From the NCBI GenBank assembly GCA_001724265.1, contig MEDY01000046.1, positions 1-64,000 of the forward strand: DNA of 64,000 nucleotides, read 5' to 3'. This document shows positions 8,663-64,000 of the stretch, piece by piece. Below the pieces are notes generated by a model. The model was given only the letters and a program-made list of their open reading frames with translations. It was not told the DNA's origin and searched no databases. Position 1 is the stretch's first letter. Each line of letters begins with the position of its first letter. The stretch is from Rhizaria sp. SCN 62-66. Its lineage: Eukaryota. The position numbers and the translations under genes were made by a program.

Positions 8663-8695
<33 letters not shown>

Positions 8696-19463: not shown

Positions 19464-22400
19464 ATGTCCCACGTATTCCCTTCCTCTCCCCACCCAGCAG
19501 TGTTTCTCGACACTGTTCGTGCGGTTGACGCTACCCCCGTGTCTACAACGGCACTGAGCTCATTCATCACCGCCATTGAGGCACACACCTCCATTGCTCC
19601 ATCTTCATCATCGCAGTTCTCAGACTACTGGGTTGCTGCAGCCGCTGACGAGGCAGCCAAGCTATTTCGTAGTCTTCCACGCGACGAGATTGCCGAACGC
19701 ATTCGCCCCTTAATCTCTTCTGCTCCTGTCGCTGGCACTGCTTCAAAGGATGATGCATCGAGCGCTGCTGCTGCTCCGGGTGCAGGCGTTGCCATCCACT
19801 CAGTGTTCTCCGCGCTTGCTGAGGCCAACGCGGCTCGTGCTGCGGGCGGCTTTGCTGTTAGTGTTGCACCCCTTTCAGATGCTTCTCGGTTTCCCACTGT
19901 TGCTGCCACCGTGTTCTCCACTTCGAAGCCGAAGCAGGGCGGCGCGAAGCAAACTGCTGCAGCAGATGCTGGGAGCGCTCCGTCGTATGAAACGCGCTCG
20001 TACAAGACCGACATGATGATGGAGTCTCCTGGCACCGGATTTGACACCGCACCCCTTGCTGCTTATGTTGACGGGCTTTCCGCGACAAACAGTGACGCTA
20101 ACTCTGCTGCGAGCGTCACTGTGCTTTCGGACGGCACCAAGCGCGTCTGCGGCTCTGTCCTGTGCGCCCGCGCGCCCGCGACTGTTGGCCGCGCGCACAC
20201 GTTGCTGTTCCCACAACCACCAGCGCTTCCCGCGGCCGCGGTTGCTATCCCGAGCACCTCAGCAGCTGCCAATCCTGACACCAGCGTTGAGACCCGTGCG
20301 GCAACCGTGCGCGTGTCTCCGTTCGCTCCCTCATGGGCGCTGCACTCTGCGCGCAACGCAGGCCCGCGCGTGCCGCGCATCCCGGCCTACGCGCCGCTGG
20401 TTTTTGCACTTGACCCGGTCCCGCACGCTACTGTCGTCGCGCGCACGAACAAAGGCGGCAAGGCCCTTGCTGCGAATACGGCCGCAGGTGTGGCTGGCGC
20501 GTGGAGCCTGGCGGGCGTGCTTGTGCAGTCACCGTCCGCGGTTGAAGCCGCATACGAGCCCGTTGCCGCGGGCGCTGCAGAGACCGACCAGGGCCCTGTG
20601 CGCCCTGCGCTTGGGGCCGCCCTGACCGCAGTTGCGCCCGACACCGCCGTGGCGACTGCGACGGAGGTTCTGCTCACACCATACTCGAAGGCGTACTTCG
20701 CTCCTGTTGGCAGTAAGAATGCGACAGCTCCTGCCATCAATGCGACAGAACACCTGTCGCCTCCTGCCGCGGTGCCGCCATTTGCTTTGACCGGTGGTCG
20801 GGACTCATATTCCCCGCTGCCTGCAGTCACTCTTCCGGCCCCCGCGACTGCGAGCGCTGGCGATACTGCAGCTCTAGTGTCCCCGCTGTGTGCGGCGGCG
20901 GCATGGCGGCCTGCGACTGTGGCGCCGCGCGTGTCTGTTGCGCACACGACGTTTCTGCCTCACGCATTTGGTTTGCACGCGCTGCATCCCGTATATGTGT
21001 TCACTCCGCATGCCTCCAACAACAGTACTGAGAGTCCTGAGCAAAGCAGCAGTGCTGCTGCTGTAGGGCCGAGCGTGTTAGTTGACCCCGTCGGCTTCCT
21101 TGTGCTTGTGGAGACGCCCGCCGCCGCGTGGGCGCACGCGCTCGACACGGCCAAGGACACCGTGCGCTGCGCGTGGCCGCGCCCGGCGCCCACAGTCACC
21201 AGTAGCAATAGCAGTGCGGACGCGTGGGCGCAGCTGGAGGACCGTCAGGCGCGCCGTCTACTGATTGCTGTGGAGGCGCTGCAGCAGCAGGTGACGAACG
21301 TGTTGGCGCCGTCGCTGCTCAGCATGGCGCGACTGGGCGCCGCGATGGGCATGTCGGACGACAGCTAGCGGAGTCTGAACGACATGACTGGCTACATGGC
21401 AGAGATCATCGCTGCTGTGCGGCCCGGCGCAACCACGCCCGCGACTGGCGACAGTGCTGCGGCGGACGCGACCAGCGCTGCGGGGCCCGCGACAGGACTT
21501 CTGCGGCTGTCGGTGTTTCCGCGCACTGCGCTAACGCGTCTTGAGGGCCACCTCAGTCAGTTCACGTCTCATGGCGGCGAGGCTGCCGCGATGTTCCCTT
21601 CCGTGGCCCAGGCTGCCGCTGAGCTTGAGGCCGCGAAGCTTGCAACTGCTGACCTGCGTGCAGTCGCCGCAGCGGCTGCCGCATGTGTCACCGCGGGCTC
21701 TGCATACGTTGCGTCAACAGGCGCGCTCGCGGCGGGCGCTGCTGCTGAGCTCCTGCGCAATCACGGCATTGACGCGGCGTCCCGCATCGAATTGCCGCGC
21801 GATCTGATGACACCACAGGAGGCGGCGCGTCCTTGGGGCACGGTCATGTCGCCGAAGAATGTGTCCCCGCCCGCTGCTGCAGCGCTGGCGGCGCGCTGGG
21901 CGCTGCTGACGACGGAGCAGCGCACTGCGGCGCGCGCTGTGGCCGCTCTCAAGCAGTGGCTTGCGGAGACCGATGTCGACTTTGACGCCCCTCCGCCGCC
22001 CGCGGGCGCAGACACCAGCGACGCGACTGCGAGCTCAAACGCGAGCGCGGGGACGGGCGCTGTCGGCGTTGCTGGCCGTGTTGGCTCTGTGTCGTTCCTG
22101 GCAGAACTGCAGTCTGCGCGCAAGACGCGTCGCAGTGTCATGGACTACACTCTCGGCGACGGCGGACCACTGGCGGTGCTCTTTGGCGGCGGCGCGCACG
22201 GACAGGACGCAGCGCAACAGGCTATGAAGCTGCGGCAACAGTGGGCGCAGAAGGTTGAGGCCGAGCGCGGCGTTGTCATGGTCGGTCCACGTGTTGACCC
22301 GCTCTTCTTCACGCAAAAGGACGCGTACAAGGTAAGCATCGCCGTGTTTCACAACTGAAATGTCGTATACTTCTACAAATTGTGCAACGTATACTTAAAA

Positions 22401-26419: not shown

Positions 26420-27394
26420 TCACTCGTCGCCATTGTCTGCGTCAATCTAGTCTTTCCCGTTCCCATTCTTGTTCAGATCGTCTTCGCCGTCATCGTCATC
26501 GTCGTCGACAACGCGGCGACCCAGGAGCCCGGCCATGTTATAGTGCGCGCGCCGCTTAAGCTCAAACGCGCGCTTCTCCGCCTCGGCCTCTTCGCGCTGC
26601 GCAGGCGTGAGTCCGTAAAACTCGTCCATCTCCTCGCCCTCGATATCATCGCCTTCACCGTCATCGTCGTCGTCGTTGCCGTCGTCGTCGCTGTCGTCGC
26701 TAGCGGGCGGCGTGTCCTCCGTCGCCACGCGCGCGCCCGCGTTGATGTCGCCACCGTGCTCGCTGTCTGCGGCGGGTGTGTTGGCCGCGAGGCGCGCGCG
26801 CTTGAGAGCCGACTTGACAGGCTTGCCGGTGGAGGTGAAGAGCTTCGGCATGCCGGCAGCGGTCGCGCACGCGCTGCGGTACTCCAAGTCGCCGCTGCCA
26901 ACCGTCACCGCGGTCACCGCGTCAAGCGTGGGGAGTTCCCCGACAAAGCAGCCCTCAGTGGCCGCGGGGGCCAAGGTCGCGGCGACTACGGCGGGCGAGC
27001 CGGTGCTGGAGCAGGTGGGCGCAAGCGCGGGCGAGTTTGACGCCGAGAGCGCGGGGGAGCCAGGCGCGTGGTATGGCGTCTTGGGCTCGTCGATGGTCAT
27101 GCGGGGGACCTTCTCAGATTCGTTGAGTGCAAGGTTGTCTTCGTCCCAGACGATTCCGGACGCGGGCGCGACGGCACGCTCGCTGCGGAGACATCGAGGG
27201 AAGAACCAAAGCATAAGAGAAGCAGTATGAAAGGAAGCACACAAAGGGTTAGTGTGAGGGACAGATAGAACAAAAATAGGCCCAATAAACACATTGAATA
27301 TGCGCATGACGATCAGTTGCATGGAAACGTACGGCTTATCAGCTGTGCTGGATTTGAGGATTGGGCGAGGCACGTTGCTTGCTTGCTCTGACAT
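26420..27394 (-). CDS. PPP1R2: Protein phosphatase 1 inhibitor-2 (Glc8 family); intron 27332-27183; in-frame TAG at 26449-26447 with true stop TGA at 26422-26420
   Basis: PILK (SILK-type motif), IVWDEDNL, IDEPKTPY and FELKRRAHYN are diagnostic. The 150-nt AT-rich GTACGT..gcag intron removes a spurious hydrophobic stretch. The acidic tail continues past TAG as IDADNGDE-TGA. Confidence 0.88.
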
Positions 27395-41421: not shown

Positions 41422-44013
41422 ATGCTGTGTGCGACCCATAAGGCCGCAGTTGCAGTACACCGCGTAACGCCTGCTGCTCGGCGCATAACACCTAGCTCGC
41501 TAACATCCCTCCATCGCGCGTCGGCGCCAGCGTCTTTGTCCAATAATTCCCGTCGTTAGACTGGACGCTCGTTTGATCTTGCATCGGTTGATGTGAGCGC
41601 ACTCTTCGCGTCCCCACCCAACGCAGGCTCCGTGCTCGCCACAGCCGTGGCGCTGCGCGACGGAGCCCGTTCAGTTGGATTTCTTTACATCAGCAACTCC
41701 CCGCTTACTGCGCACATCCCGCGTATTCATGCAGCGTCAGAGTGGTTCTTCGCGCTTCCCGACGCCGCGAAGGCTGCCGTACGCACTGACAACGCGCAAC
41801 GCGGCTACCACCGCTTCCAGGGCGCGCCGCACTCAATCTCCGCCGCTCACCCTGACTCTGGCGCAGACAGCGCTGCGGTCCCCACTCCACTTGCGGGCGC
41901 GACGCAGGATGGGATTGAGGCGTTCACGGTCGCGAACGACACAGCGCGCGTCGATGAGCTCCGCGAAGGGTACGACCAGCTCGCACTGCTGTCGCCGCCG
42001 CGCCTCGCGGCGGCGGCCGCGGCAGACGCGCGCGACCCTCAGCCACCGGCTGTGCTAGCGCGCGCAATTGCCGGCCCCGCGCAGAGTGTCGCGCGCGCAG
42101 CGAGCGCTGGCTTCGGCATTGCAGCGCCACTGTCCTCAACGGGAATGGCAACGCCGCTGCAGGGAATCGCAGCACCTCTCTCCGCTCCGATCACTGCGCC
42201 GCTATCGACGCCGTCTGCCTTTTTGCATGCGGGATTCTCTGCGCCGATCTCTGCACCGGCAGCGTTTCCTGTATTGAGCGACGCCGCGCGTCATCAACGC
42301 ACACGTGCTGCGGCGAGTGCGGGCAGCGAATCTTCTCTCAGTGAGTCGACTGTCACCTCTGCCGCCGCTGCGCCTGCCAGGACAGTGGCGACCTCAGGCC
42401 GCCTTGCTGACTTGTGCGACGAGGATGACGACGAGGCTGATGCGGGGGGTGATAGCGGCGTTGCCGTGCCGCTGGCAACGCTGTGGCGGTCCCAGCACGC
42501 AGCGGCGGGTCTGCCCTTCGCTCCGTCCGTCTCCGGCGGCGCTGCACAGTCGCTCGCGCACTCACCTGCTTAGACGCGGAGCCCGATGCCTGTGGCCTGC
42601 AGCGGGCTGCCGTTCGGTGTTCTCGCGCCGCTCTCTGCATCGACGGTCACTCTGAGTCAAGCTGCTTCACCGCCCGATCACAGTCAGCGCGTCCCAACTG
42701 TAAATGCGACAGGAGTCTCGCGTGGAGGCAACAGGTGGCCACGCGCCAGTCCCGCACCGCCCGCCCTGGCTATTCCTGCGCTCAGCACCACAGAGAAACA
42801 ACCCGAAGACGTCTGCAACAGCGACAAAAGCGACAGTACAAATACAGGAAGCACCACGGCTGCGTCTGTGACACAGACTGGGGATGCTGCTGCTGTTTTC
42901 CGCAGAGTGCTAACGGAGTATTACGACGCGTGCGCTGATACAGGCGACGTGCTTTCAGCGGCGCTTGCGTTCTCTCTTTCTCTGCCGCCTCGCACTGCGA
43001 CTCCGAACACCGCCACCGCTGCCATGGTCACGGATGCCGCCGCGGCAGTGGCGCCATTGATGCGCTTTCTGGGACGTCGTGGCTGCTCCAACGCTAAGGA
43101 TCTTGCGGCAGGAAACATGGGCGATCGCCCGTGGGACCGCGCTTGGGAGCGCGTGCCGCTTGCGCACAGCCGCCGCGCACACACTCTGGAGCTCAAACGT
43201 TACCCCGATCCTGCGCGCACGCGTATGGGGGCTGCAGCCCACGCCGCGTTGCCCACAGCCGCGGGACGCAACGCAGGTGCTGCCAGCGCAGAATATGCAC
43301 TTGCTCCGCTTGACTCGGACAGCGACGACTGTTCGAATCCTCGCTCTCACAACGTTATCAGTGGCAGTCAGGCTGTTGGCGCGGGCCCCGTGGCGCTGCG
43401 CATGCCGGTTCACTCAGACTTATCGACGCTTACGTTTTTGCTCCAGTCACACGACCAGGGCGGACTCCTTGTGTGCGACGCTGGAATTGGTACGAAATCA
43501 TAGAATAATGTGCATGCAGTCTGAATCAATTGTACACCCCCGTAATCCACACTACCTTTTAAATCAATGTGACACTTATCTCCTGTCCCACGACTACTTG
43601 TCTGTTCAACGCTTGTAGACCAGTGGCTTCGCGTGCCGCAACGCGCAGGCCACGTGCTAGTGAACACTGGGGATTTTTTCCGTTCCTGGTCGCGAGGGCT
43701 GCTGCCATCAACGTTGCATTGTGTCGCCTCAGTCCGTTCAAACTCCGACATCCCTAGCAGTTAGATTGACAACACCACAAGTGCGGTTTCTGGTGCAAAT
43801 AGTGTCTTCCGTGAGCGACTTAGCACGGTCTTCTTCTATCAGCCCGACATGGACGCAATTGTCGCTCCGCTGCCCGAGGCTAGCTTCCACCCCGCCAACC
43901 TCTCAATGACAAATGGCCACTGCGGCGGCGATATCGTCAGTGGGGTGGCGGCAAAAGCCCGGAAGCTCGAGGAAGTGTTTTTAGCTGGAGATCGTTATCC
44001 GTTTGTTGAATAA
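41422..44013 (+). CDS. 2-oxoglutarate/Fe(II)-dependent dioxygenase (IPNS-like) with Ala-rich insertions; three in-frame TAGs (41557, 42571, 43762); intron 43490-43618
   Basis: DIOX_N-like region (SVDVS..VGFLYISN..FFALPDAAK..RGY). HxD in PVHSDLSTLTFLLQ, GGLLV, then after splicing QWLRVP..VLVNTGD..STLHCV..RLSTVFFYQPD (distal His and RxS). Stop TAA 44011-44013. Confidence 0.85.
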
Positions 44014-44911
44014 TGCGCAGCGACTTTCTTCTGCGTCAGGTAAAATGCGAAACACTTCCGTGATCCTGAATGACCTAAACTAGTTCTGAGTGCCCCCTGT
44101 TTTTAACTGTATACTGCATATTTTGTGCGAAACTTGGTACATTTATTAATAAAAGTGAATTAACATAACAAATGGGCACATTTATGATATATTCCAGAAA
44201 TATATTGAATGTATTGCGTTGTTTTGCACTTGCGTTCGAAATGGGTCTTCGGGGTAGTAAGTGTTAACATCGGGAGATTACGTATTAAGTCGATAGGAAT
44301 ATTGCATTGGATGCATGAACGAACAGCTGATTTGGGGGGGAACATAAAAAAATATAATTTAATGAATTTAGGCAACGCATTCACTTGCTAATGCAAGATG
44401 AACGAAAGAGGTGCATGTTAGCACCGGGTGTCAGTTGTGTTGTTTGGGTACGGATGTCGGTTTCTCTTCTTAGAAACTGACATTACGCTTAAATTGAGCC
44501 TCAAGCTCAATGTCAAAAGTGTTATATCATTATGATACAGTTTTTATACACTCTGCCAGTATGCAAAGTGGAGACTGCATGTTTACTGTGCTGGGAGTCG
44601 CCGATGCGATGCTCCACAGTCAAACGCGCCAATACAATCGTTTCCGACATCGCGAGTTAAGAGTCAAAACTATTGATCAGTCACATTTGTGATCTCAATC
44701 AAGTTGTGTGAATACACGAAAACACATTTGTTTCTCGTAGCTGCAGCGTGTGTAGAACAGCAACTGCAGGCTTAGTTGTAGGTGATGAGTATTATAGCCA
44801 ACACAAAAACGAAACTATCGTTTGGCGTTGGGCGAGCGACAAGCCACAAAGTCTGTGCAAATTTCAGCCTGTGCATTTGTGAAGTAAGCTCAAATAGTGT
44901 CACCATGCCGT

Positions 44912-47900
44912 TTACTTGTAGCGCCTGACAATAGGGCGGAGCTTGCTCGAAAGCTTTGCATCCTCGGCCTTGAGTAAGTAACGCTTGACGAACTCTTCCT
45001 CTTTCATGAACTCTGTCTCCTTGGCGGGGATCTTGATCGCATCTTCGGCCACAAAGACGGCAACCTTGCGGCGCACATCCTCCAGAGCGGCATCAAGCAA
45101 GGCGAATACGCGTGTCCTGCGACGCTTGAACCGAAGCTCTGCCATGAAGGCATCGGAGATGTAGTAGCACTTCTCGCGGTTCTCGTTGCACGCAAGCACG
45201 TGAGCGTGCGAATCACCAGGAGTGTGGAATTTCATACACACACCGCAGAAGTCGTGCTTGCAGCTACCGCAGCGCACGGCGGCGCAGTTGGTCCAGTCAT
45301 ACACGATGACCTGACACTCAGGGTTCGGGCACTTGTCCTGCTGCGCGTCGCGAATCGCCGCCAAGAGCACAGCATTGCTCTCCTCCACGTCAGCGCTGTC
45401 GGCAGCGCTACCACCAACATTTTGAGTAATGTTACAAGTCTTGCAGGAGAACACCTTGGCGCCACCAGCTATATTGAATCAAGAATCAAGATTCGGAGGA
45501 ACAAGAAGTGATTGGTGAGAGGATAGGATTGTCAAATATCTCTGATGAGCTAGACATGTAAATAGGGTTCTTTCGGTATGGTCTCATTGATAAAAATAAA
45601 ATTACATCCAATCATGTAAACAACGTACCCGCAGGAGCCAGAGCATTTGCGCGCTGGATTTCAGGGCAAGTGTTTGTGGGGCACTTGACAAATGCGTCCT
45701 TATTCTTGAGCAGGTATTTGTCGCGCGCCCACCGGAGCATCGCCTCAAACTCACCGGGGCCAAATGCGGCAATGGGGATGTCGCGCAGCGGCAGCTTTGC
45801 CTTGCATCCTGCGGCGCAGCAGTTGCACCCATTCTGCTTTAGCTGGTTGACAACATGTGGGAGGCAGTCGTGACACGCGACGTGATTGCACACACTTGAG
45901 GCCATGCCCAAATTCTGACGCAACACTTCGTCGCCGCAGTAAGTCAAACACTCATTTCCAGTCAGCGCATCAGTCTTTTGGGTCGTGTCGAGCATGTCAC
46001 GCGACTCGAGGGCCTCCTTCAGATTGGAGACGTTTGTGTTGGAGCCTGACACAAGATAAATGTCGTTTCGTGAGGCATTTTGCGTTTTTCCAGAGTAGAT
46101 ACTCTCGACCTTGCTCTTCTTTAGCAGCTGCTCAACATCACTCGCTTTGGCAGTGCTTTTAATCTCAATTCGGTTGTCAACCCACGCAAAGTCGGCGAAC
46201 TTTGTGACTAGTTCTTGAAGCTTAGCCCGCATTGCGTTGCAGCATGCTGCACTGCCATACATGTCGATCGAGTTTGCTTTGTGATTAATCTCAGCCCACA
46301 CAGGTAACTTTGACTTGAACTTTACTTGCGCTCCGTGTTTACCCTTATCGGCATCTTTGTCTTTGTTGATCTTCTCCGTAGTTTTCTTGCTGCGAAATTC
46401 CGTAAACAGCCCGCCAAGCTGACGTGTACCGTTTGCACCGGTGAGGCGTGAAAAGACGTCGATTAGCGCGCCCGTATCTCGCTTGACTGACTCGACACGG
46501 TGAGACACAAAGACAAACTCGTTCTTCATGTACTTCTCAGCAGCTTCAATGGCGGAGTCATCACCTGCCACAATGATGGTGTACTTAGAGGAGTTCTTCT
46601 TGTTGCCGTTCCTGCTGTTAACATCAACAGTGGGTAGAATCTTGCATTCCGCGCCCTTGGTGACAGCAGCCAGCTCTTCCATGACCTCATCACCCATTGA
46701 GGTACCCACCTCAGCAGGTAGCACAATCATCAGAAGCGGGCACATCCGCTGCTGAAGACTGCGGCCAAAGTGATTGGTATCGAACATACTCCCCGCGGGA
46801 AACTGTCCATCAATGTAGGCGTACTGACGAGGGTTGTTGCCCTTACGCTCCACAGCCACTGCAACCTTTTCAACAGAGTCATGTGCAAACGCGGGCGGCA
46901 GCTCGAGACCACCGGCCGCGGTGGCAATCCAGCTCGCCTCGCAGATCTGATCCCTGCGAATAATTTCGATGCCACATGCAGCCTCTGCAATTGCCACAGT
47001 ACCAGCCGCAGACTGAGAGTAAGCAACTGTGCAGCCTAAGCGGCGCAGCACTGAGTGGTTGTGCAGCACATAATACAAAAGCGCTGCATCTCCCCTCGAG
47101 GCGCAGGTTAGTGTCGCTGTAGTGCGATCGGGGTTGTTTTCGTCGCGCTCAAACGTAATGGTGGGAACCTTACTGTCGTAGTTGTCGGGAATAAAGAAAT
47201 CGCGGAACACCTCTTCGTCATCGTACTCGTCAGGGGTGTTTGCAGGGATGTTGGACACTGCCACCAAGGCAGTTTCATTGTCGCACAGAAGATCGAGCAC
47301 TTCGAGACCGGCACCACAAAGCAGAGCGACGTTGCCCCCGACGTCCATCTGACGCACTTCGACAAGCTTGCGTCCGTGCACCGCTTGGCGAAGCTTGTAA
47401 AACGCGAGAAATGCCAGATCGGCGTTGTTTTTGGGTGCACGAACCATGACACCAGATGCGTCGATCACAACCGTGCAGTCGTGCTTCTTCTCGAAACGTT
47501 CGCGTGCCGCCGGAGTCGGGAACAATGCGTCTGACTCGCCAAGGTTAAGCGTGTAGAACTTGCTTTCTGTTGCTGTCTGATGAGCCAAGGCATGACACTT
47601 CTTGTAGAAGTTTGGACTATATTTTACAATCCAGTCCAGCTCAATGGGCACCGGCGGGGTTGTGACAATGCACTGACCGTGAGAAGCGTGCGCGGACACA
47701 TACACAGCCCACTGGCTCAACCCGCGAATCTCAGCGGGAGACTGACGGCGCCAGTTAATCAACGTCTTGCCACTGCTTGCGCTCGTGTAGTACGCATGGT
47801 TGTTGTTGGTTAACCCCGCGTCGTCGTTGAGCTTGCGGATGGCGTGAGTAAAGTACCCTGCTGCAACGCACTTGAATACATCTTCATCGCGAATGTTATT

Positions 47901-50699
47901 AATGTTGACCATCGCATTCATGAACAATAGATTAAAGCTTGAGATGTGTTGGGCCATATGCTACTCCTTCATAAAAAAGCTCGTGAAGTTCTTAATCATG
48001 TGCTCAATCCAGTTGTGAGCAAGCAAAAAGTACTACTCCGGCAGTTTAGACTTCTTGACCTCGAGACTACGCTGCTGTGGCGATGTTGCCGTACGCCAGG
48101 CCACAATTGCCTTCAAGCACGCTTCGACGCCGATTGACGACTTCTTTTTGAGACTCTCAACAAGATCATCTCCGAGCACAACATCGTCGTTGACTGTCGC
48201 ATCTCCATCTGACACATGGGCGATGAAACCTGGGTTCGAGAGGTGAATGTAGTGAAGTGCGGCAGCAACAGCAGCACCAAACCCGAGATTTTTAGACTTA
48301 CTGCCCTCAACGATCACTTGAGTAAGCTCAATGGGACAGCCTGTAGCAACGCTCATCCTGCCGATCTCAGTAGTCATGAGAGTATCTGGGTGAATTGCAC
48401 CGAGTTCACACAGGTCCTCCATCGCGTGCTTCACTGCATTCTACGACGGTGGATCAAACCAACGGAACTCACTTGGACTATGGCCCAGGGATGCGAGACA
48501 CAGCACCGTCGTTTGCAGCGGTTGGCACAGCACTGCAGCAACGTTTGCTGGGGCAAAACGCTTGAGCTGGTTGTGACTATAGAGACGCACACAGTGGCCT
48601 GGGCGAGTACGGCCAGCGCGACCCTTGCGCTGCTCGGCCGAGGCCTGCGAGATAGACTTCAGCGACACGTGCGCAAGGTGCGTCTTGGCGTTAAACTCGC
48701 TGGCGGAACGCAGGCCGGGGTCAATGACCACGGTCACGCCGTCGATCGTCAGCGATGTCTCGGCAAACTCGGTCGCCAGGTACACGACGAACTCGTTGTT
48801 CTTGTTCTTGTACGCTGCTACTTTGCCCCTGCCCCTGCCCTTGTTCCGCGCGCCGCCCGCGGGCTTACCTGAGCTGTTCTCATCCTCATCAATAGACCCG
48901 AGGTTGCTTGCCGGCTCAAGGTGACCGTCAGCATCTGTCATAGTGACTATGGTGAAGGTCGCATCATTGGGCATCGAACGCGCAATTGTTGATCGCTCGA
49001 GTAGCCGCTTGGCTTGCTCGATGTGACCGTCAGTCGGGAGGAACACCAGAATGTTGCCCTTGAGCGGCCCGCACAAGCTGCCACGCAAGCAACTTGTAAT
49101 GTTTGACACAACCGTGCTTGCCAGGGTGGGCCCAGTAAAGGGCACGGCAGGCGGCACGTGCATGATGTCAACCCAGTTGCGTTGGTCTTTGATGTTAACC
49201 TGGCCAACGCAAAGCGCGTTACCATCGCGTGCAAAGTAGTCGCTGAACGCCTTCGAGTCAATCGTAGCCGACATGACGACAACCTTGATGCCCATACCGA
49301 CAGCTTTTGAGGCGAGCGACAGAAGGATGTCGCTCTCGACAGTGCGCGCATGCGCTTCGTCAAGCACAATACACCCGACTGTCGCATCAGGAACAAGCGC
49401 ACCTTCAGAGCCTAAAGCGCTGTCGGTTTTTCGCGATACTGCAACACGATACGCGTTAATGACGTCCATCTCGGAGGCGTACGCAATGCGGGTGCTGTCG
49501 CTTGCACCTTGGCAGTCGGCGCCGAGGAACGCCACGCCCGATGTACCATCCTCGGCCTTGGCCCCCTGAAGGGTGATGCCGTTGCAGCCATGGATTGCGT
49601 TTTCGTCGCCATTACTTAGGCTCTTCAACAGCCCATGCACACGAAAGCAAGATCCATTGAAGATATTGCGGACGTACTTGGATAGTTCTTCAGCCGCCAT
49701 GCGGTGCGGCTGCGTACACAGCACTGTCTTGCCACGCATGAATTCGAGATCGCTGACAAAAATGGGCACCTGCGTGCTCTTGCCACAACCGGGTGCACCC
49801 GTGACAATAATGATGTCGTTGTCAGTCACCGTGTCCTCAATCTCCTTGCGGTGCCAGCGCACAGAGTGCTCGCCCAGCAGCAGGCTTGCCTCACGGCGAA
49901 GGTAGCGGACCATAGCCTCATCGCTCAGCTGCGCATTGCGTGCTTTAGACACACGCGCGTTAAGGTCGTTGGTGTACTAGTCAAAGCACACCCGCAATGC
50001 GTCACGGTCTGCGCCACGCAACGTTGACTGCGGGCTAAAGTAGTTCGAATGGACTGTCTCACAGATCGTAGCCAACTGGACCTCTGCATGCTTGACCAGC
50101 TGTGCAAGAGGAAGAGTGGCAAGCTTCTTATAATCGTATTGCTTGGCAGGGCTGCGAAGGATGTTCGCATTGTTGTTGCGATCGTTACTGCGGTTGTTTG
50201 CACGTTGGTGGTCACTGCGTCCATGGCCGCCTTCACTGACACGTTCGCGGCGGTTTCCGCGGTTGTGGGCGCTGTTTTCAGGATCACCACCGTCGTTCAC
50301 AGCACCGTTCGAGCCGTCGTCGAAGTCGTCGTCGTTCCCCTCGGGTGTATTGCGGGGTTGACCAGGAGCGCCCCGAGCATGACGAGTCTTCTGGTGCTGG
50401 CGCCGTTCACGCTCGTTCTTGGCGTTTACCGCATCTTGATAATCCGGGTCATCTTCGTGGATGTAGGAACACATCCATTTCTTGCCACTGTCGCAGCCGC
50501 GACGAGTATTGTTGCGAGAGCAGATCAAATGCATAGCGGTGTGGCGGTAGATGCACGTGGAAGCATGCGGATTCCGTGCCAAACAAAGGGCCTTACGGAT
50601 ATATGGACATAGCGGGGTTTCATGCTCGGTGCACCTGGAGTTGAAGCAGAGGCGGCCTTTGCACTTCCGGGCTTCGCCAGGAGGGCGTCCAGAACTCAT
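44912..50699 (-). CDS. CCCH-zinc-finger + DEAH-box RNA helicase + RBR (RING1-IBR-RING2) E3 ligase fusion; four in-frame TAGs (49979, 48443, 48035, 47963); intron 45628-45469
   Basis: GAPGCGKSTQVP, CTQPHRMAA, DEAH, MSAT, LVFLP, LATEFAETSLTIDGV, SQASAEQRKGRAGR, FDPPS..DLCELGAI (HA2). RING1: CLTYC..CNHVACHDC..CCAAGC. IBR-like: CPTNTC..CKTC. RING2: CPNPEC..NCAAVRCGSCKHDFCGVC. Five ORF-track pieces join into one frame. Stop TAA. Confidence 0.88.
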
Positions 50700-51233
50700 C
50701 CTTGGATGCAGCTAAGCCTGCTTTTGCTAAAATAGATGAAATATAAACAGTCACGCGAAAATATTCACATGGTGAGTCAGCAAGCAAAATGTGCTGGAGA
50801 GAGAATGGAGATCCGCCCAATCTCACCGTGGGGGTTCGTACATTGACTTGAGCTGAAGATACGAAAGATAGATACACGTAAAGCATTTAATATAGAGTTA
50901 CATAGGAAAATGCAACTCAAGCTTATTCCTAGTCCCAATACGTTGATAAACGGATATCTCAAGAATCTGTGTCTATTTCATTTGTTGTCCCATTCTTTGG
51001 ATTGGTCGCCTCACACGTCAGTCAGCAAGTAGCCTGGGCGGCTTAGCTTTTACCAAAGGAATCGAGAGTTTTATTTAAGAGGATTTTAACACCGTTTCGA
51101 AAATTTAGCGGGGGAGTGGCAATGGGATATTGTCGAAAGAAATTAAGACGGGCCACTTCCGTTCACAGATATTGATGGTTAACTGACATATTATACGTAA
51201 TACGTATGAAATAAATGTAGTCAATGTGACAAC

Positions 51234-54200
51234 TTAGTCCATCGGCAGAATGGCCTGATGGACGTCGCTCAGAGGCTCTCCCTCGTTGCCACATCCACCG
51301 AGAACCCACAATGCACCACCTTGCACTAATAGCATGGGATCTGTGCGCGGCGTAGGCACAGCCGCACCTGGCGCCGTTGCAGCTACGACCCACGCCATGG
51401 TGCGCAGATCCAACACCTGCAGACCTGGCGCCATCGCGCCTATTGCTGTCTGCCCACCGAACACAAGTACACGCGCCCCGTCAGCCACAGCGGCGGCGCC
51501 AGTCAGCACGCTTTCGGTTCTGACAGCCACGCTTGCGTTCGTGCCACCCATACGATCATTGCACGCCGCGATGACGGAGGCGCGTGTGTTGACTGTGCGG
51601 TGCTCAAGCCAGAGGGCTGATCCTGCGTAACGGCCAGTGACCGAGTCGATGTCGAGTCGCAATTCGTACACAGCTGCCGCCGCCGCAGCACCAGGGGACC
51701 GCGCGCCAGCGACAACGAAGACAGAGCCGCCTGACGACACAACCAGTGCGCCGATGTGCGCACTAGCCGTCGAGGGGGACGGCGGGGTCGCGGTCGGATC
51801 GCCACCCGTCTTGCTCTCATCCTCCTGGCCGGACGCGACTGAGGCTAACGAGCGCGGGCGAAGAGGGCCAGTTGCGCTGGCGGCTGGCTTAACGCGCACA
51901 GAGAGCTCGCGCCAGCCCGCAGTCGGGACGCGCAAGTCGAGCAGCCAAGAGGCCACGGCGTCCGAGGCAGCGCCGCCGGCAGCTGCGATTGTGACGAGGT
52001 TGGAACCGACCCGGACGGTGCGGCGCTGGCTGCATCCAGGCACGGCACTTGCAGGTAGCGTGATAACAGAGACAGCGTTGGTGGTGAGCAACACCGACAC
52101 AAGAACAGCGGCGCCGGTAGCTGCGTCTGAACCGTCAATAAAGAGCTTGCCAGCGTCGTAGTAAATGCCCGCGATATCGAACGGCGTCACGTCCGACGTG
52201 ACGAGCGACACAGTCCGGACACGTTCCTGAGCGTTGAAAATCGACGAAGTACCTGAAGAAGATGCGTCCGCCAACGAAGACGCTGCTGACTTCGGTGCTG
52301 CGACGGTGCCCATCACTGTGATGGCACGGGGGTCAAGCTTGAGCGAAGCACGCGGCGAAGCGCTGCGGTGCAGTACGACGGGCGACGCGGGACGAACCAC
52401 AAGCACTGCCGAGCTGGGCAGTGCGTCGCGCTCGTCGTTGAAAGCATCTAAGGACGCGTTACCACCGCTGCCGTCGTTCTCGTCGTCCAGTGCGATGGCG
52501 CCGCGCGGGGCACGAGCAGGCGGGTCATCGGCGCCCGTGCCGTACGTGCGACAAAAGAGAGCGCGCTCGGGAGTATCCATGTTGGGCATCCAGTGCGACA
52601 TCGCAGTTGACTGCAGCGTCACGACGGCCCAGGCGACTGTTGTCCCAGATCCCATCGCGGTCGTAGCACAACGCACTGAATGTACTGCAGTCAGCACCGC
52701 CACGCCGTTTGGTGTAGCAGTCGCAAAAGACGGCTTTGTTGTCATGCCACCCGTTAGTGTGTTCGAGCGACTGCGATCTTTGATGGCTGGGATGGAAGTC
52801 GCCGTGGCGGCATCCGGCATAACGCTGACGATGGGCGCCGAGACATCGAATCGTGGTGTGAAGACCATCGATGCCGGTTGCAGTGGAGGGTACAGTGTCG
52901 CGAGCACGGGGGTCGACTCAACACCCAATGTGTCAACACTTAGCAAACGTGGTTTCTCACTGTCGCTGTCGCGAGAATTCTTACCAGAAACCAACGAGAT
53001 GGCACGCTTCAGGAACGTCATCTTAGGACGCGCTGCCTCTGCCAATGCAACAGCAGCAGCAGGATCATGAATCAGCTGCGGCAGAGCGTGAGGCGAAACA
53101 GAGACGTGACGCACGTCAAGCCGGCCCCAGTCGCGACTACCCCCGATCTGGACTACGCCGCGCGAGAGCGCCAGCAACGGCGCGAGAGTGAGCATGCTGG
53201 TGACCGGACTTGGCACGTCAGCAGTGCCAAGAGCTGCAATGAACGGGCAGTTGTTAACGACGACGCCCTTAGGACAATGTGGTGTCGCTGCAGCAAGCGG
53301 CGACAGTGTCACAGGCACTCCGTCCAGGAAGACGCGGAACATGCGTCCCAGCGGCGTCGCGCGGCTTTCATTGAGAAGTGTCCCAAACCTTCCGGTAACT
53401 GTAAGCCGATGCCACGTGTCGAGCGCAACCGTGGGGGCTGCCATGTTGTTGTCATCGGCCGCAAAGCGGTACGCAGACGCACCGGCCCAGTCAATGCGAC
53501 CACCAGGGTGCACGGCAAGCACAGGAGGGCGTGCGGCGTCGCGGAACATCCGCACACGTGCCTCCTCGGAGAGTGAGTCCTTCTGAATGACGATTGCATG
53601 ATCCATGCGCGAGTAAAGCGAGGGTGCGCCCTGGTGATTAGCAATGTCAGACTCAGTTGCGCCACATGACACGCCGAGCCCAAAGCTCAACAACGGGAGA
53701 GCGAGTGGACCTGGGAACGTAACTGCGCCCGACGCAGCCGAGACGTTGGATCCACCCGTGTGTGTGACTGGGGAGTCAACAGGTGACGACTGCAGCTTGA
53801 ATTCAAGGACGATTGTGTACTCGCGCACCGCAGCGTAGCGTTCACGAGCATTACGCATGTTAGCGAGATTGTGAGCCCATCCTAAGGCGGAGTACTCGGA
53901 CAAGGAGTGCAGTTTGTTAAACCATTCAGCTTGAACAGGCACGAGCGAATCGCGCACCGAACGCGCACGTGGGGCTGCCGACAGGGCCGAGCTCGTTGGA
54001 GGTAACGCCACAGACAGGAACTCCCCTGCGCCAAGTGATGCCACGAGCCGCGGAAGCGCGGGGATACCTGTCGGCGCCACACCGCTTGTGTAGGCGACGG
54101 GTGCGTTCCCTGAAGTGTCGGCCATGTAAGCCAGCTGTACTTGCTGGCGTGCAACACGCGGAGGAATCACGGCCGGCTGAAACACGACGTGCGGCGGTCC

Positions 54201-57200
54201 GTGCGACGCTAGTCCAGCAAGCAGGCCCATCGTAGTCGAAGGGACCGAGCTCGCGGTGCCGAGTGGAGCGGTTACATGCTTAGAATACTGATGGATCTCC
54301 GAGAACGACCGATGATGAGCGCCGCCACATGCAAAGATGTGACGCGCGCGCCGCGCGAGGCAGTACGGCTGAGGCGCAGTCGGCGATACAGAAACCACCG
54401 CAGGCGGCTCGTTGTAAGCGCCAATCGTTCCAGGTGGCGGCGGTGGAGGCGGCGACGTAAGCGAAGACGAAGCCGGTGCCGGCGGGAAAAATGCAGCCTG
54501 CGGTCCAGACGGGGGCGTGATCGCACGCAACTGGCCCATCATGCGCGCGAGTGGGTTATAGGGGTCTGGGGTGCGGTCGACATCATCCACTGCAGGGTAG
54601 GCTGGCGCAGCCTCTTCGGGCGGAGTGGAGGCGGGGGCTAGAACAACAGACGCGGCAGAACCCTCGAAGGGCAAGCGGTCTTCGGCAACATCAAGGCACG
54701 CGCACTCGCCAGCGCGTCGGATCCCCGGACAGTCATCGTCGGCATCACTCTCGGTGTCACTTCCAGAACCACAACCGCCATTGTTATCGGCCATCGCAAT
54801 CAGATCGTCATCAGCAACGACCTTGACGCGATACGCTGGCTTCGGAGCAGGCTCGTCCTTTGCATTGCGCCATGTCGCCAAGTGTGCCGACCAGTCCAGC
54901 GCGCATACTTCGTCCACACTGGGACGAGCTCCCGGCGAAGTGCTACCACAAACGGCCAGTGTAGAAGCCAGTTCAGGCGCAGCATGCCGCAGGAGCGGAC
55001 CGTCGGGCACACGCGCAGCGGGCGGACGAACACGCACGGTTGCTGGCAGACGCAGGAGTGAGCGTGGCGCGAATAGAAGACTGCGGGGAATGAACATGTA
55101 GCCAGTGCGCGCATAACGTTTTTCTGCGCGCAAATCGGAGGCACGCGAGAAGGTCGCAGCCAGCGCCCATGGAGACATGCTCAAACCGTGCGCCAGCCGC
55201 TGCCAACGCAGCGCTGAGGCTGCCGTCTCCACAGGGCACGTCTCGGCTGCGGCAGCGTCAGCGAGCCGCGGAGCAGAGAAGGCGGCTTCAAGAGGCATCG
55301 ATGCAGGGAGCGGCCTGTCTGCGCTGATCTCCGTCATGGGCGGGGGAGGTGGCACGTATTTCATCCCAGCACGCGCAGCAGCAAGTTGAGTCGCGGTGTT
55401 ACGTGGCGCAGACGAGAAAGCCGGCCGGACGAAGACAACCGACTCCGTCCACGTAGCGTTCTGCACCTGCACACGCTTCGATACTTCATCCTTGCCTTTG
55501 TTTGCTGGTTTTGCCTTGGAAAATGACACCACTGTTGCATTTTTGAATACTTCTGCAACGCCACCGCCGCTAAGAATAGCATCAGCAACTTGATGCTTGT
55601 CGAAGGAGCCGAAGCACTGCATAAGCAGTTCCGGTGGGTTACGGATGATGTTGGCAAGGAAGTTGGGCGAGATGTAAAACTGCTTTAAGTACTCCGCGTT
55701 CAACGACGTCAACAGCATCGCTTGCGGAGCAGGACGGTCAGCATCACAAACCTGACACTTGCGGGCCTCTAAAGGGGACTCCGCATAGGTGCACACAAGA
55801 CAAGTCCACATCTTCGATGCGGTCAGAAGGCGCGAGCGGTGAGTCGCAGTGACTTGCATTCGGACATCACATTCTGTTTCCAGTCGCCGTTTTTCAGCAG
55901 CGGTGCGCACAACACCCATTGGCAGAGGTTGTTGCACCGGCTTGGATAATACCGTTTCGACAGTCTTCGCGGTGGGTAGCGTGGGATAGATTGTGTAGAC
56001 AGCAAACGGGACCTCGCTCCCGATGCCTGCTGAGCGCAGCAGCTCACCCGCAGACGGCCCTGCCGCAAGCGCCAAGTGCTCCCAGTCAAGTGCGCGCGCG
56101 CGAGAGATCCGTGAACCGGCACAGCGGCGCCGGGATTGCATGCGCAGATGGTTGCTGGCAATGAAGGGATGGACCTCGCGTGTCGGCGCAGCGGACACGG
56201 CAATGCTATACGCGGGAGGCGGTGGGAACGAGGTGTCCTGAGTCACACGCGCGGTGACTCTGAGCGCACCATCAGGCACAGCATCGGCGACGCCCGAGTC
56301 ATACGTAGGCGCTGGCGCCGACAGCGTTGTACTCAGATTGTCCACAATAATCTCTCCTGAAGCAGCGGTCCGCGCACGCGTCGTAACCACGACATCATCT
56401 AGCTCGTCGTCTGAAGCAAAGTCCTCCTCATGTACCGGCGTCTGTGCAGTGGCGTCGACTCTGAACGGCGTTGGCGCCACACCCGAGAGCGACGACGATT
56501 GGGAATCAGCGGAACGCATGCCAGAGACAGCTAACGGTTCGCGTGAACCAGAGAGCACGCCATAGACGCGCGTGAGCGGCATCTTGAATGGCGGCGCTAA
56601 CGTTGCGGTCACAGTCAGCGCGGGTGAGATAGCGGCCTCGCCCGCACGCGGCGCACCTGTGCCCGCAGCGTGCAGAGTGCGCGTGTAAGGATGGGGCTCG
56701 AGCGGAGCGCTTGACTCAACAATGTGTGTGGAGTACACGGTGGCGGGCGGCAGGGTCGGAAAGTCGATGGGTGCCGCACAGAGACCAACAATGCCGACGC
56801 AAACTGTGGACGCAGGAACGGTAGAGGCGATAGCCTTCTCATCGGGAACATTCGCTGCGCGCGCAAAGCGGCCGAGGCGTGCAAGAGCAGCCGCAGTCAC
56901 GTTAAGGACACCATGCGCTGAACCCGTCCAGCAATCCGGTAGCTGGTGGAGCGGGCCGAGACGCAGACCGTTGCGAGTGAAGAAGACGCGGTTCGTGTGC
57001 GTGCAGTAGCCAGCGCCAAGTGTGGCAGGCAATGCAAAGGGCGCACAATACTGGACGGCAACCTCGCGGCCGGCGTGGCGGAAAATTAAGACACCGTCAC
57101 AGTTCAGGGCAACAACACCATCAGTCTGGTAAGCGGGCAAATACCGTGCGGCATGTGTGGCCGAGCCGAGAACAACGCCTGTCGTGACCATAATCGCAAT

Positions 57201-60200
57201 GTAGGGGCGTACACCACGACCACGCTCGACGTTGTTGTCGTCATCAGCTGCAGTCGCACTCGGCGCCGCAACGGTGACACCGGGCAGCGAGCCTGCAGCG
57301 CGCCGGCGCGTGGAGGCCAATGCAGCTGGGCTTTTCTCTGCTTCCGTCAAAGCGGCATCCGAAGTCGCGCCTGTCACGCTACTTGCTAGTTTTACGGCCA
57401 TCTTATAGAAACGATTCTTGATAGTCCCATCAGTTACGGCTTGATTAAGTTTCTGAATGGACGCAAGCATACGAAATCGCATAACGGATCCCTCAGCTTG
57501 AGGTGCAGCGTTTGACTCTTCCTCTTCCTCTTCGTCACTACTGTCGGAGTTTCCACCCGAACGCACATTGGAAACTGGAGGAGCGCCAGCATTAGAAAGT
57601 GCGACCGCAACTTCTTCCTTACGCGTGACGTTACCGCGGCTGTCGTCATGTGCGGCCAGTTGAGTCATCCGAGTCACGCCGTCGGTGACGGGCGTGGCGT
57701 GAGCAATAAAGGGCAGGATCGTCGCCTCGAAGTAGACGTACCCACCGCAGTGGGCAGCAGGGAAAGCCTTTGCGGCAGCCTCTGCCTCATCCTTGGCACC
57801 GGCGCCGTCCCAGTTCGCCGACAACAGCTGCGCCGGCACGCCAGGAAGATAAGGCAACGGCGTCGCCGTGACGAGGTTCACGAGTGACGTCTGCGCGCGG
57901 GCAAGGCAGTGCGTGTAGCTCTCAGTCACAAAGTGCACCGGGACCTTGTACGCCTGCATGTGTTGCGTCCAAGGTGCGGAACGTGGGCCAGGCGAATACA
58001 CGCTGCTCCACAACGCGATCATGTTCGTGTTGGCGCCAACCGCAGCGGCCCAGGTGAGTTCCATCATTGCCAGCACGCGGCGGCGCAGGTCATCTGCAGA
58101 CTGCCGGCGCGCGACAGCAGCGTTAGCAAGAAGCTGGGGATAAGTGCCATCAAGAACCAGGTTGTACCCATTTTCACGCATGATGATGTCCGACTCAGCT
58201 GTCAGTGTCTGCGGCCACATCATCGCAGCGTGCAGTGCCGCCTCACTCACCGGCGCCATCAGTGCACGATCAACACGGGTCCACAAATAACGCGGTTCAC
58301 GGCGATTGCATGCAGCCTCATTGCTCGCACTATTAGAGGACGCATCATGAGTCAGGTTTTCGCCCCAACCGCCAGACTCCTCCTCATTGTCGTCATGCCT
58401 TTGATTGTTTGACCGACGCTTAGCCACAATAGCATTGCGAATGCGCGACTCGTTCGCAAAGTGCAGACTAATCTCGTTCTTAGCTGTAACACGGGACTTG
58501 GTCTCGCTATCTGAGCGCTGGGTTAGATCCTCATCCATCAGCGTGCGCATCGACGTCACAGCTAACGCTGCGGGTGTGGGGATTGGCCGTGTCGTGCGAA
58601 ACGGGCGCATCACCATCGCCGTGCCGCGGACAACGGGTGCTACGAGCGAACGCATCGTCTGCGCAGGAACAACAATCTGTGCGTCGCCGCTGGGCATCGC
58701 CACACTGGTAAGCGCAGATGTTGACTCAAGCACAGTCAGGTAGCGACCACCGCCGTCTACTGGCGCGCGGCGGCGCAGCAGCAGCCGGGGTGCAGGCGGA
58801 GAGATGGCAGAACCAAGCGGGGGCGCGCGGATGCCAGCGCAGATAATCATCGACTGCTCCATGGCGCAGGTTTGATACATCTTGATAACCGCAATGCCAT
58901 CGATGAACACAGTTAGAGCACCGTTGATGTTGTCCGTCGTGAGCGTGACAGAGCTGCGGGACGTGAGCGGTGGGAGGCGTTTCGAGCACAGATCCTTGTC
59001 AAGGCGCAGATGGGTCTCCATGCCACTGTTGTTGTTGTTCTTGTTGTTGTTGCGCTTATTGTCATTAACCTTGGTACTCTTGACCTTGGTCCGCTTAAAT
59101 CCTGAGAATGTGTTGGCGATCATCATCTTCATTTTTTTCTCGACTGAGTTAAACATCGAAAAGACACCGCTGGATTTCTCATCGTCCTCCTCAATTTCAG
59201 GACTGCTTGCATCATCCGCTGAAGGCGGTTCAAGTAAAGCTGCGACAGTCGCGTCTACAGCCGAGATGCTCCCACACGGTGCGAGCTGAGCTGCACGTTT
59301 AAGCACCGATGTTGCGATTTCAATGTCAGGTCCTACAAAGGCGTGGCCCGTTGACAGGATCACAACGCCATCTGATGGGGCACGCGCCCACGGCAAGCTA
59401 TTCGTTTGCGGGGACACAGAGGAAGATGCAGGTCCAGACAGTGACGAAGACTCAACACTACTGCCATTAGCCAATCCGTCACCGTTGGGCTGCGTGATCG
59501 TGTGCAACGCGGATAGCGCCGCGCCAAGCGAGCTGCCCGCATTAACACTCGAATGCCTAGTGCTATGATCGTCGACAGCAATCCCACTTGGTAGGGGTAA
59601 CAACGCGATGAAAAAAGACGGAGCGTCCGCAGCCGAGATCGCGTCCTCGTCAGCACACGCATGCTCCTGACCCTCAGTTGTAACCCAAGACACTGGTACT
59701 GTTGTGCTTGTAGGTAAGATATCAACCGTGAAAGAGGAGAACAGATTGCTGTGCGAAGCGCCATTCATTGCAGACGCAACGTGCCAGCTCCCGGGTGTCG
59801 CGGTGGGCGCGAGAGAGAGCACGCTGCCTCCGGGGGCAACCTCGACCGACAGCTCGACTTGTGCGCTCGCAGCGATCGCAGGAGCAACCGTTGGGACAGC
59901 CCATGAGTGCGCGCGGCGGTCAGTCTCGATGTTGGCCTTTGTCACAGCAGGGTCTTCGGCGACCACAGTTAAGTTAACAGAGGGCACAGATGAGTCCATG
60001 TTTGCGCAAAGCGAGCAGCCGAGTGAGAACTCCATTCCGTTGGGCGGGTGCGCGAGCTTCAGAGGACATTTGCTTGGCCGCGACAAGATAGATGTGCCAA
60101 TCCTGGCAAAGATCTCTTCTTGCGACTTCAGCTTGCCGAATCCGGAATAGTCTGTCTTGAGAATCTTCTGCACGTCGGGGTCACACTGACTCTGTTCATC

Positions 60201-63200: not shown

Positions 63201-64000
63201 CATCTCACCGACGGCAAAAAAATTGGGCGTCGTCAGCTTGGCGGCAACGAGTGGCCGTGTGACATCTGTGTCAAGCGCCATGGCAACCAATGCGGGGCGC
63301 GCGCGAGCAACTGACAACGCGCAATGCCATGCACCAGCAAGCGCATCTGTGTTGGCTGCAGAAACAACGGCCTCTATAGCACGCTCGCGCATCAATGATC
63401 CCGGAGGCGCAGTTGTTGCGATCGTCGGCAGAAGCAGCGTGCCAATCTTCTCGTCAGCAGCAGAGGCAGGGTCAACCTCAGGGGAGCCAGCACCGACAAC
63501 TGTTGCAGCGGTTTTGGGCGAAGCAGCTGCCTTCGGGACAGCAATCGCAGTGACATGAAAACGTGCGTCCGCAGCAATAGCCAAGTCGGAAGGTAACGCA
63601 CGTGACTGGATTTGGACAAGTGCTGAAGCTGCAAGGCTTCTAGCAGGTGCGTCCACTTCAGGGTCATCGTCAGAGGCGTCCGACGGTGGATACGAACACG
63701 AAGGAACAACATTCACCTTTGCGCGCGCATGCGCAGTCGCGACGGCGGAGGCACCCGCATAGATGGCATTTGCGGATGCGACCGTTGTGGCCATATCTGG
63801 CAGTGCTGACACAAACGCTCCGTGAGCGACCGCTTCCAGCATGAGACTCGACGTCGATAAGCGCGAATCGCTGGCGATGTTCGCGAGCGTGGCCTCCGTC
63901 ACTGGTAAATCGGCAATGCGTCGATTCTTGTCTGCCAGTGTCGCCTGCGCCACAGAGAAAGACGTCACTAAAGCGGGCAGTGGATTCAGCGCAGGTACAT
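51234..64000 (-). CDS. Giant (>4200 aa, 5' end outside the window) E3 ligase: IBR-like domain + MYCBP2/Highwire/RPM-1-type RING-Cys-relay module + SPRY + RanBP2-type zinc finger + LamG-like + Kelch-like repeats; one in-frame TGA at 60257-60255
   Basis: SCMKLLSCGHFCRGVKDE..CPPCL; RING CSVC..CGHTFHYEC..W.G.RMSFDFLGCPVC; CHRCTKPYFAGARNC; CKKHGTDFISWKCRFCCNIAVFFCF..HFCQ*CHD; CPLKLAHPPNGMEFSLGCSLC. SPRY: YFEATI..VFFTRNG. ZnF: WTCLVCTY..CQVCD. Kelch-like: VLVFGG..LWVLGG. Frame open to the window edge. Stop TAA. Confidence 0.8.

Follow-up and report, generated by a model that had tools for sequence, protein, structure and literature searches.

In-frame TAG codons in a helicase-RBR gene of Rhizaria sp. 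SCN 62-66 suggest that UAG is translated, probably as glutamate

The stretch of DNA analysed here, referred to as the window, comprises the first 64,000 nucleotides (nt) of contig MEDY01000046.1 from Rhizaria sp. SCN 62-66 (GenBank assembly GCA_001724265.1). On its minus strand lies a gene which joins a DEAH-type helicase to a putative RING1-IBR-RING2 (RBR) ubiquitin ligase module, and the reading frame of this gene is crossed by four TAG triplets. We think it rather likely that this lineage translates UAG, with glutamate as the probable amino acid, and that TAA and TGA still end genes. The TAGs are real and in frame, lie within conserved coding sequence, are retained between strains and occur independently in an orthologous gene, and the sequence downstream of them is under selection. 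From this we infer the insertion of an amino acid by the ribosome, its identity, a basis in tRNA and release factor eRF1, and an extent across the genome.

The first exon of the helicase-RBR gene (45629..50699, minus strand) begins with the ATG at 50697-50699 and has 1690 full codons plus one base, the four TAGs being its only interruptions. Its end was set by a GTACGT donor and by a frame-preserving join to exon 2 (44912..45468, minus strand), which carries the IBR/RING2-like part and a C-terminal tail and closes with a TAA stop at 44912-44914; a TGA comes four codons after this stop. The intervening intron (45469..45628, minus strand) is of the spliceosomal type, with a length of 160 nt, the ends GTACGT...ATATAG, a GC content of 0.34 and phase 1. 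It is the only real intron found in the gene, and its removal yields ...LAPA|AGGAKVFSCKTCN, in agreement with the orthologue P0001. The minus-strand frame from 45609 to 50699 contains four TAGs, no TAA and no TGA in 1695 codons. The two other minus-strand frames over exon 1 contain five TAGs each, 9 and 30 TAAs (39 combined) and 27 and 66 TGAs (93 combined). This is far beyond chance: TAA and TGA are shut out of the frame, as stops should be, and TAG is as frequent in the frame as out of it.

The four TAGs, all on the minus strand, are located at 49977..49979 (TAG 1, codon 241), 48441..48443 (TAG 2, codon 753), 48033..48035 (TAG 3, codon 889) and 47961..47963 (TAG 4, codon 913). The peptides quoted around them in the original prediction, which was made from the sequence alone, were all four reproduced exactly by translation. 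TAG 2 stands directly past motif VI of the helicase, where the winged-helix part begins, and codon 753 has surroundings of the form x-N-x-V-K common to the window protein and the orthologues P0001 and P0002, with E at x in the latter two. That this TAG falls in the conserved segment following motif VI, as had been proposed, was borne out by a gap-free alignment of the region to the solved helicases DHX8 and DHX15 (FDFMDAPPMETL.. / FDFMDPPAPETL..; E=1.7e-24). TAG 3 is inside a conserved KLP.x.YF..A..W block; its upstream flank has one gap, two residues away, in the alignment to the orthologue on metagenome contig L001, which is described below. TAG 4 occupies a stretch of low conservation that is richer in AT than its surroundings (GC 0.39 within ±60 nt).

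Alignment to the orthologues passes through TAGs 1, 2 and 3 of the window without gaps, so that removing these as introns would remove conserved residues. The possibility at issue is that very short introns excise the TAGs, some of which have ...TAG| acceptor-like contexts. TAG is a usual ending of a 3' splice site, the real intron of this gene ends in ATATAG, and the window protein is about 10-14 residues longer than its relatives in the AT-richer, poorly conserved stretch around TAG 4. Such introns are scarcely credible all the same, given that the flanks of TAGs 1, 2 and 3 align gap-free to orthologues, and TAG 2 also to solved helicases, and that the sole intron seen is 160 nt long, AT-rich and opened by GTACGT. 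At TAG 4 alone a small intron may exist. The earlier statement that no GTACG donors occur near the TAGs is nearly right, in that among the seven GTACG on the strand of the gene only one, at 48094, comes close, 59 nt upstream of TAG 3. The stretch from there to TAG 3 is conserved coding sequence in the orthologues.

A word-index search returned two orthologue-like proteins, P0001 and P0002, with 43-44% identity. A search of 1.84 billion representatives gave 26166 proteins at E<=0.001, among which only entries of four organisms exceed 400 bits, the next best scoring 268 bits; since the entries above 400 bits are confined to the same four organisms, the TAG columns are unreadable in further relatives. 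A scan of metagenome contigs confirmed six loci out of 596 pattern matches, one of which, L001, was useful. In the search for DNA of this lineage, a scan of genome contigs gave ten loci, all of them weak P-loop matches in bacterial metagenome-assembled genomes, and a scan of viral contigs gave none.

L001 is a metagenome contig of 2673 bp with a GC content of 0.49, and its orthologue is 56% identical to the window protein. Its 836 codons include two in-frame TAGs, no TAA and no TGA; the other frames hold 29 TAAs and 56 TGAs. The sites of the two TAGs differ from all those of the window, their flanks align to the orthologues, and fragments ending exactly at them have also been recorded from other assemblies (P0124, P0243). 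The first is in motif VI, where L001 reads SKASA-TAG-QRIGRAGR and the window has GAG between identical neighbours (GCC _ CAG CGC). In two related organisms, therefore, this gene carries six interruptions in all; every one is a TAG, and no two share a site. L001 is far less GC-rich than the window, yet it shows TAG-only interruptions at a similar density.

The DNA of the window was found in bioreactor, wastewater and activated-sludge metagenomes. Seventeen runs are listed, four of which contain at least half of the sampled words (one of these four may be the source), and runs were compared over 44700-64000. Run X2 represents a strain about 0.3% diverged, with contigs covering all four TAG sites, and run X4 shows no difference from the window. 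The original prediction had named reads with different bases at the TAGs as a refutation; no such difference appears in the covering runs, the four sites being unchanged in X2 and X4. No indels between strains were seen in this comparison. The TAG-bounded fragments P0123, P0125 and P0126 have been recorded from 7, 4 and 6 contigs, respectively, and a public contig of 172 kb carries these proteins. Assembly error was considered as the source of the TAGs and was ruled out, because X2, X4 and several assemblies all have them.

In every segment compared between the window and L001, the proportion of non-synonymous differences (pN) is 0.25-0.36 and that of synonymous differences (pS) 0.71-0.85, and this is also true of the segments that follow the TAGs belonging to each species; synonymous divergence (dS) is saturated between the two. 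Downstream of the TAGs the values are 0.31-0.36 and 0.76-0.79, and this sequence is under purifying selection. Between strains, X2 has 10 single-nucleotide polymorphisms (SNPs) in 4191 covered coding bases of the gene versus 7 in 694 bases of intron and upstream spacer (Fisher p=0.006), three of these 7 being in intron 45469-45628. The resulting density of about 1% in this intron and in the spacer (50700-51233), with about 0.25%, or one quarter of that, in coding sequence, offers an internal yardstick of constraint.

These figures bear on whether the gene is a pseudogene, hit by nonsense mutations separately in the organism of the window and in that of L001. In favour of decay, loss of helicase-type RBR genes is described as frequent (Marin 2010, PMC2904391), TAG is the stop most easily reached from the codons of this gene (about half of the nonsense paths give it, by estimate), and the SNPs of the helicase gene within the species, five synonymous and five non-synonymous, are not significantly off neutral (p=0.08). 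The corresponding SNPs of the neighbouring gene are 13 synonymous and 10 non-synonymous (p=0.001). Decay is nevertheless very unlikely, given pN far below pS behind the TAGs, the retention of all four in a diverged strain, a coding SNP density one quarter of the non-coding one (p=0.006) and the absence of indels between strains. All six interruptions in the two species are TAG, and no TAA, TGA or frameshift occurs in 1880 plus 836 codons. Relaxed selection had been proposed as a check on pseudogene status; pN proves to be well below pS, and the gene is best explained as intact and selected, specifying a large protein in which Cys/His fingers are combined with a DEAH-type helicase and a putative ubiquitin ligase of the RBR type.

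As to the amino acid, the TAG columns were read against the orthologues, much as had been suggested, and E is the commonest residue opposite (6 of 18). For the window TAGs, the residues in the three other orthologues are D/L/Q at TAG 1 (D, encoded by GAT, in L001; L and Q in P0001/P0002), P/E/E at TAG 2 (P in L001; E in both P0001 and P0002), H/E/E at TAG 3 (H, encoded by CAC, in L001; E in P0001 and P0002, and also in P0004) and S/P/P at TAG 4 (S in L001; P in both P0001 and P0002); for the TAGs of L001 they are E/T/K and P/S/E. Summing BLOSUM62 scores by hand gave 27 for E, 11 for Q, 11 for P, 7 for D, 3 for K and -42 for L. If TAG is translated at all, this comparison makes glutamate its probable meaning, an assignment in which we place somewhat better than middling confidence. 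The original prediction offered CAG, TTG or GAG as the codon with which TAG exchanges. GAG is seen, at the motif VI TAG of L001, which is the best single site of exchange, and no TAG column is paired with CAG or TTG in L001, the sole orthologue compared at the level of DNA. Leucine was rejected as a meaning on its sum of -42.

The same columns speak to repair at the level of RNA, by which the TAGs would be altered in the transcript, for example A-to-I (UAG to UIG, read as Trp) or U-to-C (giving CAG). Sexual-stage fungi offer a precedent for the A-to-I route, and an editing activity specific to UAG predicts what is seen here, namely that TAG alone is affected. Edits that restore an ancestral codon predict W or Q in relatives, but there is no W among the 18 opposite residues, on which count tryptophan through editing was rejected, and only one Q; the TAG sites show no difference across the four runs, the polyA-RNA run lying outside these sites. 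We regard such repair as highly improbable.

A number of observations weigh against UAG as a regular glutamate codon. What speaks most strongly against a simple reading across the whole genome is the TAG-free adjacent gene, which resembles MYCBP2: it has no in-frame TAG in 4254 codons, its other frames containing 28 and 18, and about 7 would be expected among its 171 Glu codons from the TAG share of Glu codons in the helicase gene (Fisher p=0.009 for the difference). Among 13 long open reading frames (ORFs) read as genes in our own models, TAA is the stop of 5 and TGA clearly that of 6; the remaining 2 have a TAG 8 or 7 codons ahead of their TGA, possibly the true terminator, so that TAG may still end some genes. 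No tRNA genes were found in the 64-kb window with ARAGORN or Rfam, nor any other Rfam family, and eRF1 is not among its genes. The sole RNA contig listed in the helicase gene from the polyA metatranscriptome run X8 (48101-48362) is outside the TAGs and the intron, and none was seen in that run across the joint of exons 1 and 2. As for glutamate, L001, the closest orthologue, has D, P, H and S, and no E, opposite the four window TAGs, and the call draws on six sites in a four-member family in which P0001 and P0002 do not count as independent. To these points may be added the near-neutral SNP pattern of the helicase gene given above.

In-frame TAA is absent from the helicase gene (1880 codons), from L001 (836) and from the neighbouring gene (4254). 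The original prediction held that the helicase gene carries the most TAGs because of its lower GC content, TAG being an AT-rich synonymous codon. The part of this which treats TAG as a translated codon is supported by homology, the TAGs of the orthologue, selection and strain retention. Lower GC as the cause is not supported: the neighbouring gene has a GC content at third codon positions (GC3) of 0.59-0.62 versus 0.62, and a GAA:GAG ratio of 54:117 versus 32:60, yet it has no TAG.

Uneven use of TAG (4 in 1880 codons here, 2 in 836 in L001, none in 4254 in the neighbour) also fits leaky or ambiguous decoding. Here UAG would be mainly a stop, read through by weak suppressor or near-cognate tRNAs, and tolerated only in a few dispensable, weakly expressed genes at a low yield of protein. 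The two ORFs in which a TAG, 7-8 codons before TGA, is a possible terminator agree with this, as does the description of helicase-type RBR genes as often lost and 'often dispensable' (PMC2904391). Four read-throughs multiply, so that almost no full-length protein would be made unless each were efficient, but the 781 codons from the last TAG to the end of the exon are conserved. In addition, the bases following the six TAGs (TAC, AAT, TAC, CAT, CAG and GAT) show no common read-through motif that could be recognised. Leaky decoding appears unlikely to us.

Under the preferred reading, both the window organism and its L001 relative would insert an amino acid at UAG, glutamate being the likeliest, and would retain TAA and TGA as terminators. 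A mutated copy of tRNA-Glu(CUC) with the anticodon CUA would pair with UAG and not with UAA, and the grip of eRF1 on UAG would be weakened. This mechanism follows the one proposed for known UAG-only codes, namely a tRNA with a CUA anticodon, which does not pair with UAA, and a weakened eRF1 (Panek et al. 2017, PMC5304391; McGowan et al. 2024, PMC11687900). Since the use of TAG is uneven, decoding may be costly or the change young, in which case TAG would collect mainly in weakly selected genes; if it is costly, TAGs may build up in dispensable genes such as helicase-type RBRs. A fuller version, which we advance only tentatively and rather doubt, is of a young or ambiguous change of UAG to glutamate that leaves UAA and UGA as stops and in which tRNA-Glu(CUA) competes with eRF1 and UAG survives only in weakly selected genes of a GC-rich, intron-bearing, non-ciliate protist lineage of wastewater.

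Exon 1 of the helicase-RBR gene specifies, in order, Cys/His-rich fingers at the N-terminus, the DEAH helicase core, a long stretch in the middle that matches no known family and, last, a RING1-like cluster of Cys and His; the intron splits the C-terminal module between this cluster and the IBR/RING2-like part. The hallmarks of DEAH/RHA helicases (Walker A, DEAH, QRxGRAGR) are all present at the expected spacing. Motif I (GAPGCGKST; 49773..49799, minus strand) and motif II (DEAH; 49350..49361, minus strand) are invariant in the orthologue alignments, and motif VI (QRKGRAGR; 48609..48632, minus strand) is directly preceded by GAG codon 689, where L001 has TAG. The closest solved structure to the helicase core is DHX8 (E=1.7e-24), and the PDB alignment reaches only into the winged-helix part. 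Pfam Helicase_C is over its cut-off in all three orthologues (24.2, 23.8 and 28.6 bits) and just under it in the window protein (22.3 versus 23.5 bits); neither HA2 nor OB_NTP_bind was matched at E<=0.01 in any of the four. The N-terminal fingers and the RBR part are barely detected by Pfam: IBR (PF01485) matches exon 2 with E=3e-4 and 21.1 bits, under the 24.3-bit cut-off, IBR_1 gives 17.8 bits, and the RING1-like cluster, which has no Pfam match, was judged by eye from its Cys/His spacing. The distant homologues P0044 and P0082 possess helicase and IBR Pfam domains. An AlphaFold2 model of the helicase core, built on a four-row alignment, is of very low confidence (mean predicted local distance difference test score, pLDDT, 41; predicted template modelling score, pTM, 0.27).

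The original prediction referred to DEAH11/12-type helicases, DEAH11/DEAH12 being proteins of Arabidopsis. The 'Helicase' or 'Plant I' subfamily of RBR ligases is described as having a DEAD/DEAH helicase and a C-terminal RING1-IBR-RING2 in a very long protein (Marin 2010, PMC2904391), and the window gene, with its putative RBR part, would resemble it in both layout and length. Unlike other helicase-type RBRs, it is very divergent and belongs to a tiny group of orthologues.

Elsewhere in the window, the TAG at 21366..21368 (plus strand) is a further clear in-frame case, in the ORF 19311-22355, which belongs to no known family and has a GC-rich context. The coding score is positive on both sides of this TAG (0.18 and 0.21), and it may be removed by a GC-rich intron of 79 nt starting at a GTGACG further upstream. 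Another possible in-frame case, in a different gene, is the TAG at 17080-17082. The window-wide scan of coding potential is noisy in GC-rich DNA, antisense ORFs also being positive, and gives no more than weak support for the TAGs at 21366 and 17080. The TAG at 41557-41559 (plus strand), between the start codon and the DIOX_N domain of a 2OG-oxygenase-like gene, is ambiguous and was not counted as a sense codon, as it may end an in-frame, stop-free intron of 105 nt (41455-41559, GTACAC...CGTTAG); that at 26446-26448 was likewise left uncounted, since it may be the true stop of an IPP-2-like gene. The composition of the window is very uneven. Its GC content, taken over 2 kb at a time, is 0.47-0.76, and many of the proteins are Ala-rich and of low complexity. 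GC-rich genes have long spurious ORFs on either strand, so that the length of an ORF is by itself no proof of a gene here. Pfam analysis of a batch of eight window ORFs returned few families, most of the genes being Ala-rich and divergent.

The neighbouring gene specifies a giant MYCBP2/PHR-like E3 ligase (51234-63998, minus strand) of at least 4254 codons and runs off the end of the window. It has an in-frame TGA at 60255-60257 (minus strand), between the ORFs 51234-60254 and 60258-63998 and inside the conserved MYCBP2-type RCR/tandem-cysteine domain, where the window reads HFCQ-TGA-CHDNY versus HFCNACHDDF in the solved MYCBP2 (E=9e-26). This TGA is polymorphic, being TCA (Ser) in X2 and X5 and TGA in the window and X4; either one strain has a nonsense allele here, or UGA may be readable as sense too. 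A second TGA, at 6956-6958, is bridged in frame by the two ORFs that make up a CPSF3 (CPSF73) gene (5339-9514, plus strand), and it stands in an AT-rich, intron-like stretch. The nearest relative of this CPSF3 is a metagenome protein with 72% identity, animal and holozoan proteins showing about 50%; CPSF3 is too well conserved, and its sampling too patchy, for these figures to serve in placing the lineage.

The nuclear code rarely changes, and cases in which UAG alone has changed and UAA still serves as a stop are even less common. Sparse, gene-specific UAG in a GC-rich genome bears on how reassignment originates, whether through an ambiguous intermediate or by codon capture. A young or ambiguous reading of UAG, should it be true, would represent the 'ambiguous intermediate' of code change as it occurs in nature, and this in a genome rich in GC, for which codon capture does not predict the change. 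There is also a consequence for annotation. Gene callers split such genes, public protein sets carrying this one as three fragments, and because TAG-bearing genes are broken into pieces in this way, the proteome of a wastewater eukaryote is mis-annotated.

The codes nearest to the one proposed are those in which UAG alone is reassigned, as in Rhizaria sp. exLh (UAG=Leu) and Iotanema spirale (UAG=Gln), where a tRNA with a CUA anticodon and changes in eRF1 are predicted to underlie the new meaning (Panek et al. 2017, PMC5304391). As described there, UAG occurs inside genes, UAA and UGA are the terminators and the organisms are not ciliates, all of which probably holds for the window. In contrast, the residues opposite TAG favour Glu here, and not Leu (-42) or Gln; the window is GC-rich (0.47-0.76), has introns and comes from wastewater-type metagenomes; and a handful of sites stands against a transcriptome-wide tally. 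Phyllopharyngean ciliates are reported to read UAG as Leu or Gln, with UAA as the preferred stop (McGowan et al. 2024, PMC11687900). They are like the case proposed here in that UAG alone is reassigned, UAA is kept and the finding came from mining of metagenomes, but in that report UAG is widespread in the proteome and suppressor tRNA(CUA) genes were identified, whereas UAG in the window is sparse and patchy. In our judgement a multi-gene, GC-rich and intron-bearing contig of 64 kb is not ciliate-like.

A glutamate meaning for UAG distinct from that of UAA is found in Oligohymenophorea sp. PL0344, described as having UAG=Glu, UAA=Lys and UGA as stop (McGowan et al. 2023, PMC10553269). Unlike the situation in that organism, where UAA is sense, TAA is never in frame in 1880 plus 4254 codons of the window and ends at least five of its genes. 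In peritrich ciliates UAG=Glu goes together with UAA=Glu (PMC11687900). The window would share with such UAR=Glu codes the glutamate for UAG and differs from them in that UAA is not read as an amino acid (no in-frame TAA; at least five ORFs ended by it). Blastocrithidia is said to use both UAG and UAA as Glu and UGA as Trp; the UAR=Glu codes are numbered as NCBI table 30 (peritrichs) and table 31 (Blastocrithidia). Unlike in Blastocrithidia, UGA as Trp is not seen here, save for the one polymorphic in-frame TGA of the neighbouring gene. In the literature searched, a limited collection, there was no report of UAG=Glu with UAA and UGA stops in a GC-rich or wastewater non-ciliate protist. The published UAG-only cases found there are described as UAG=Leu or UAG=Gln, and UAG=Glu as occurring only alongside a reassigned UAA; if true, UAG=Glu alone in a non-ciliate would be both a new variant of the code and a new lineage.

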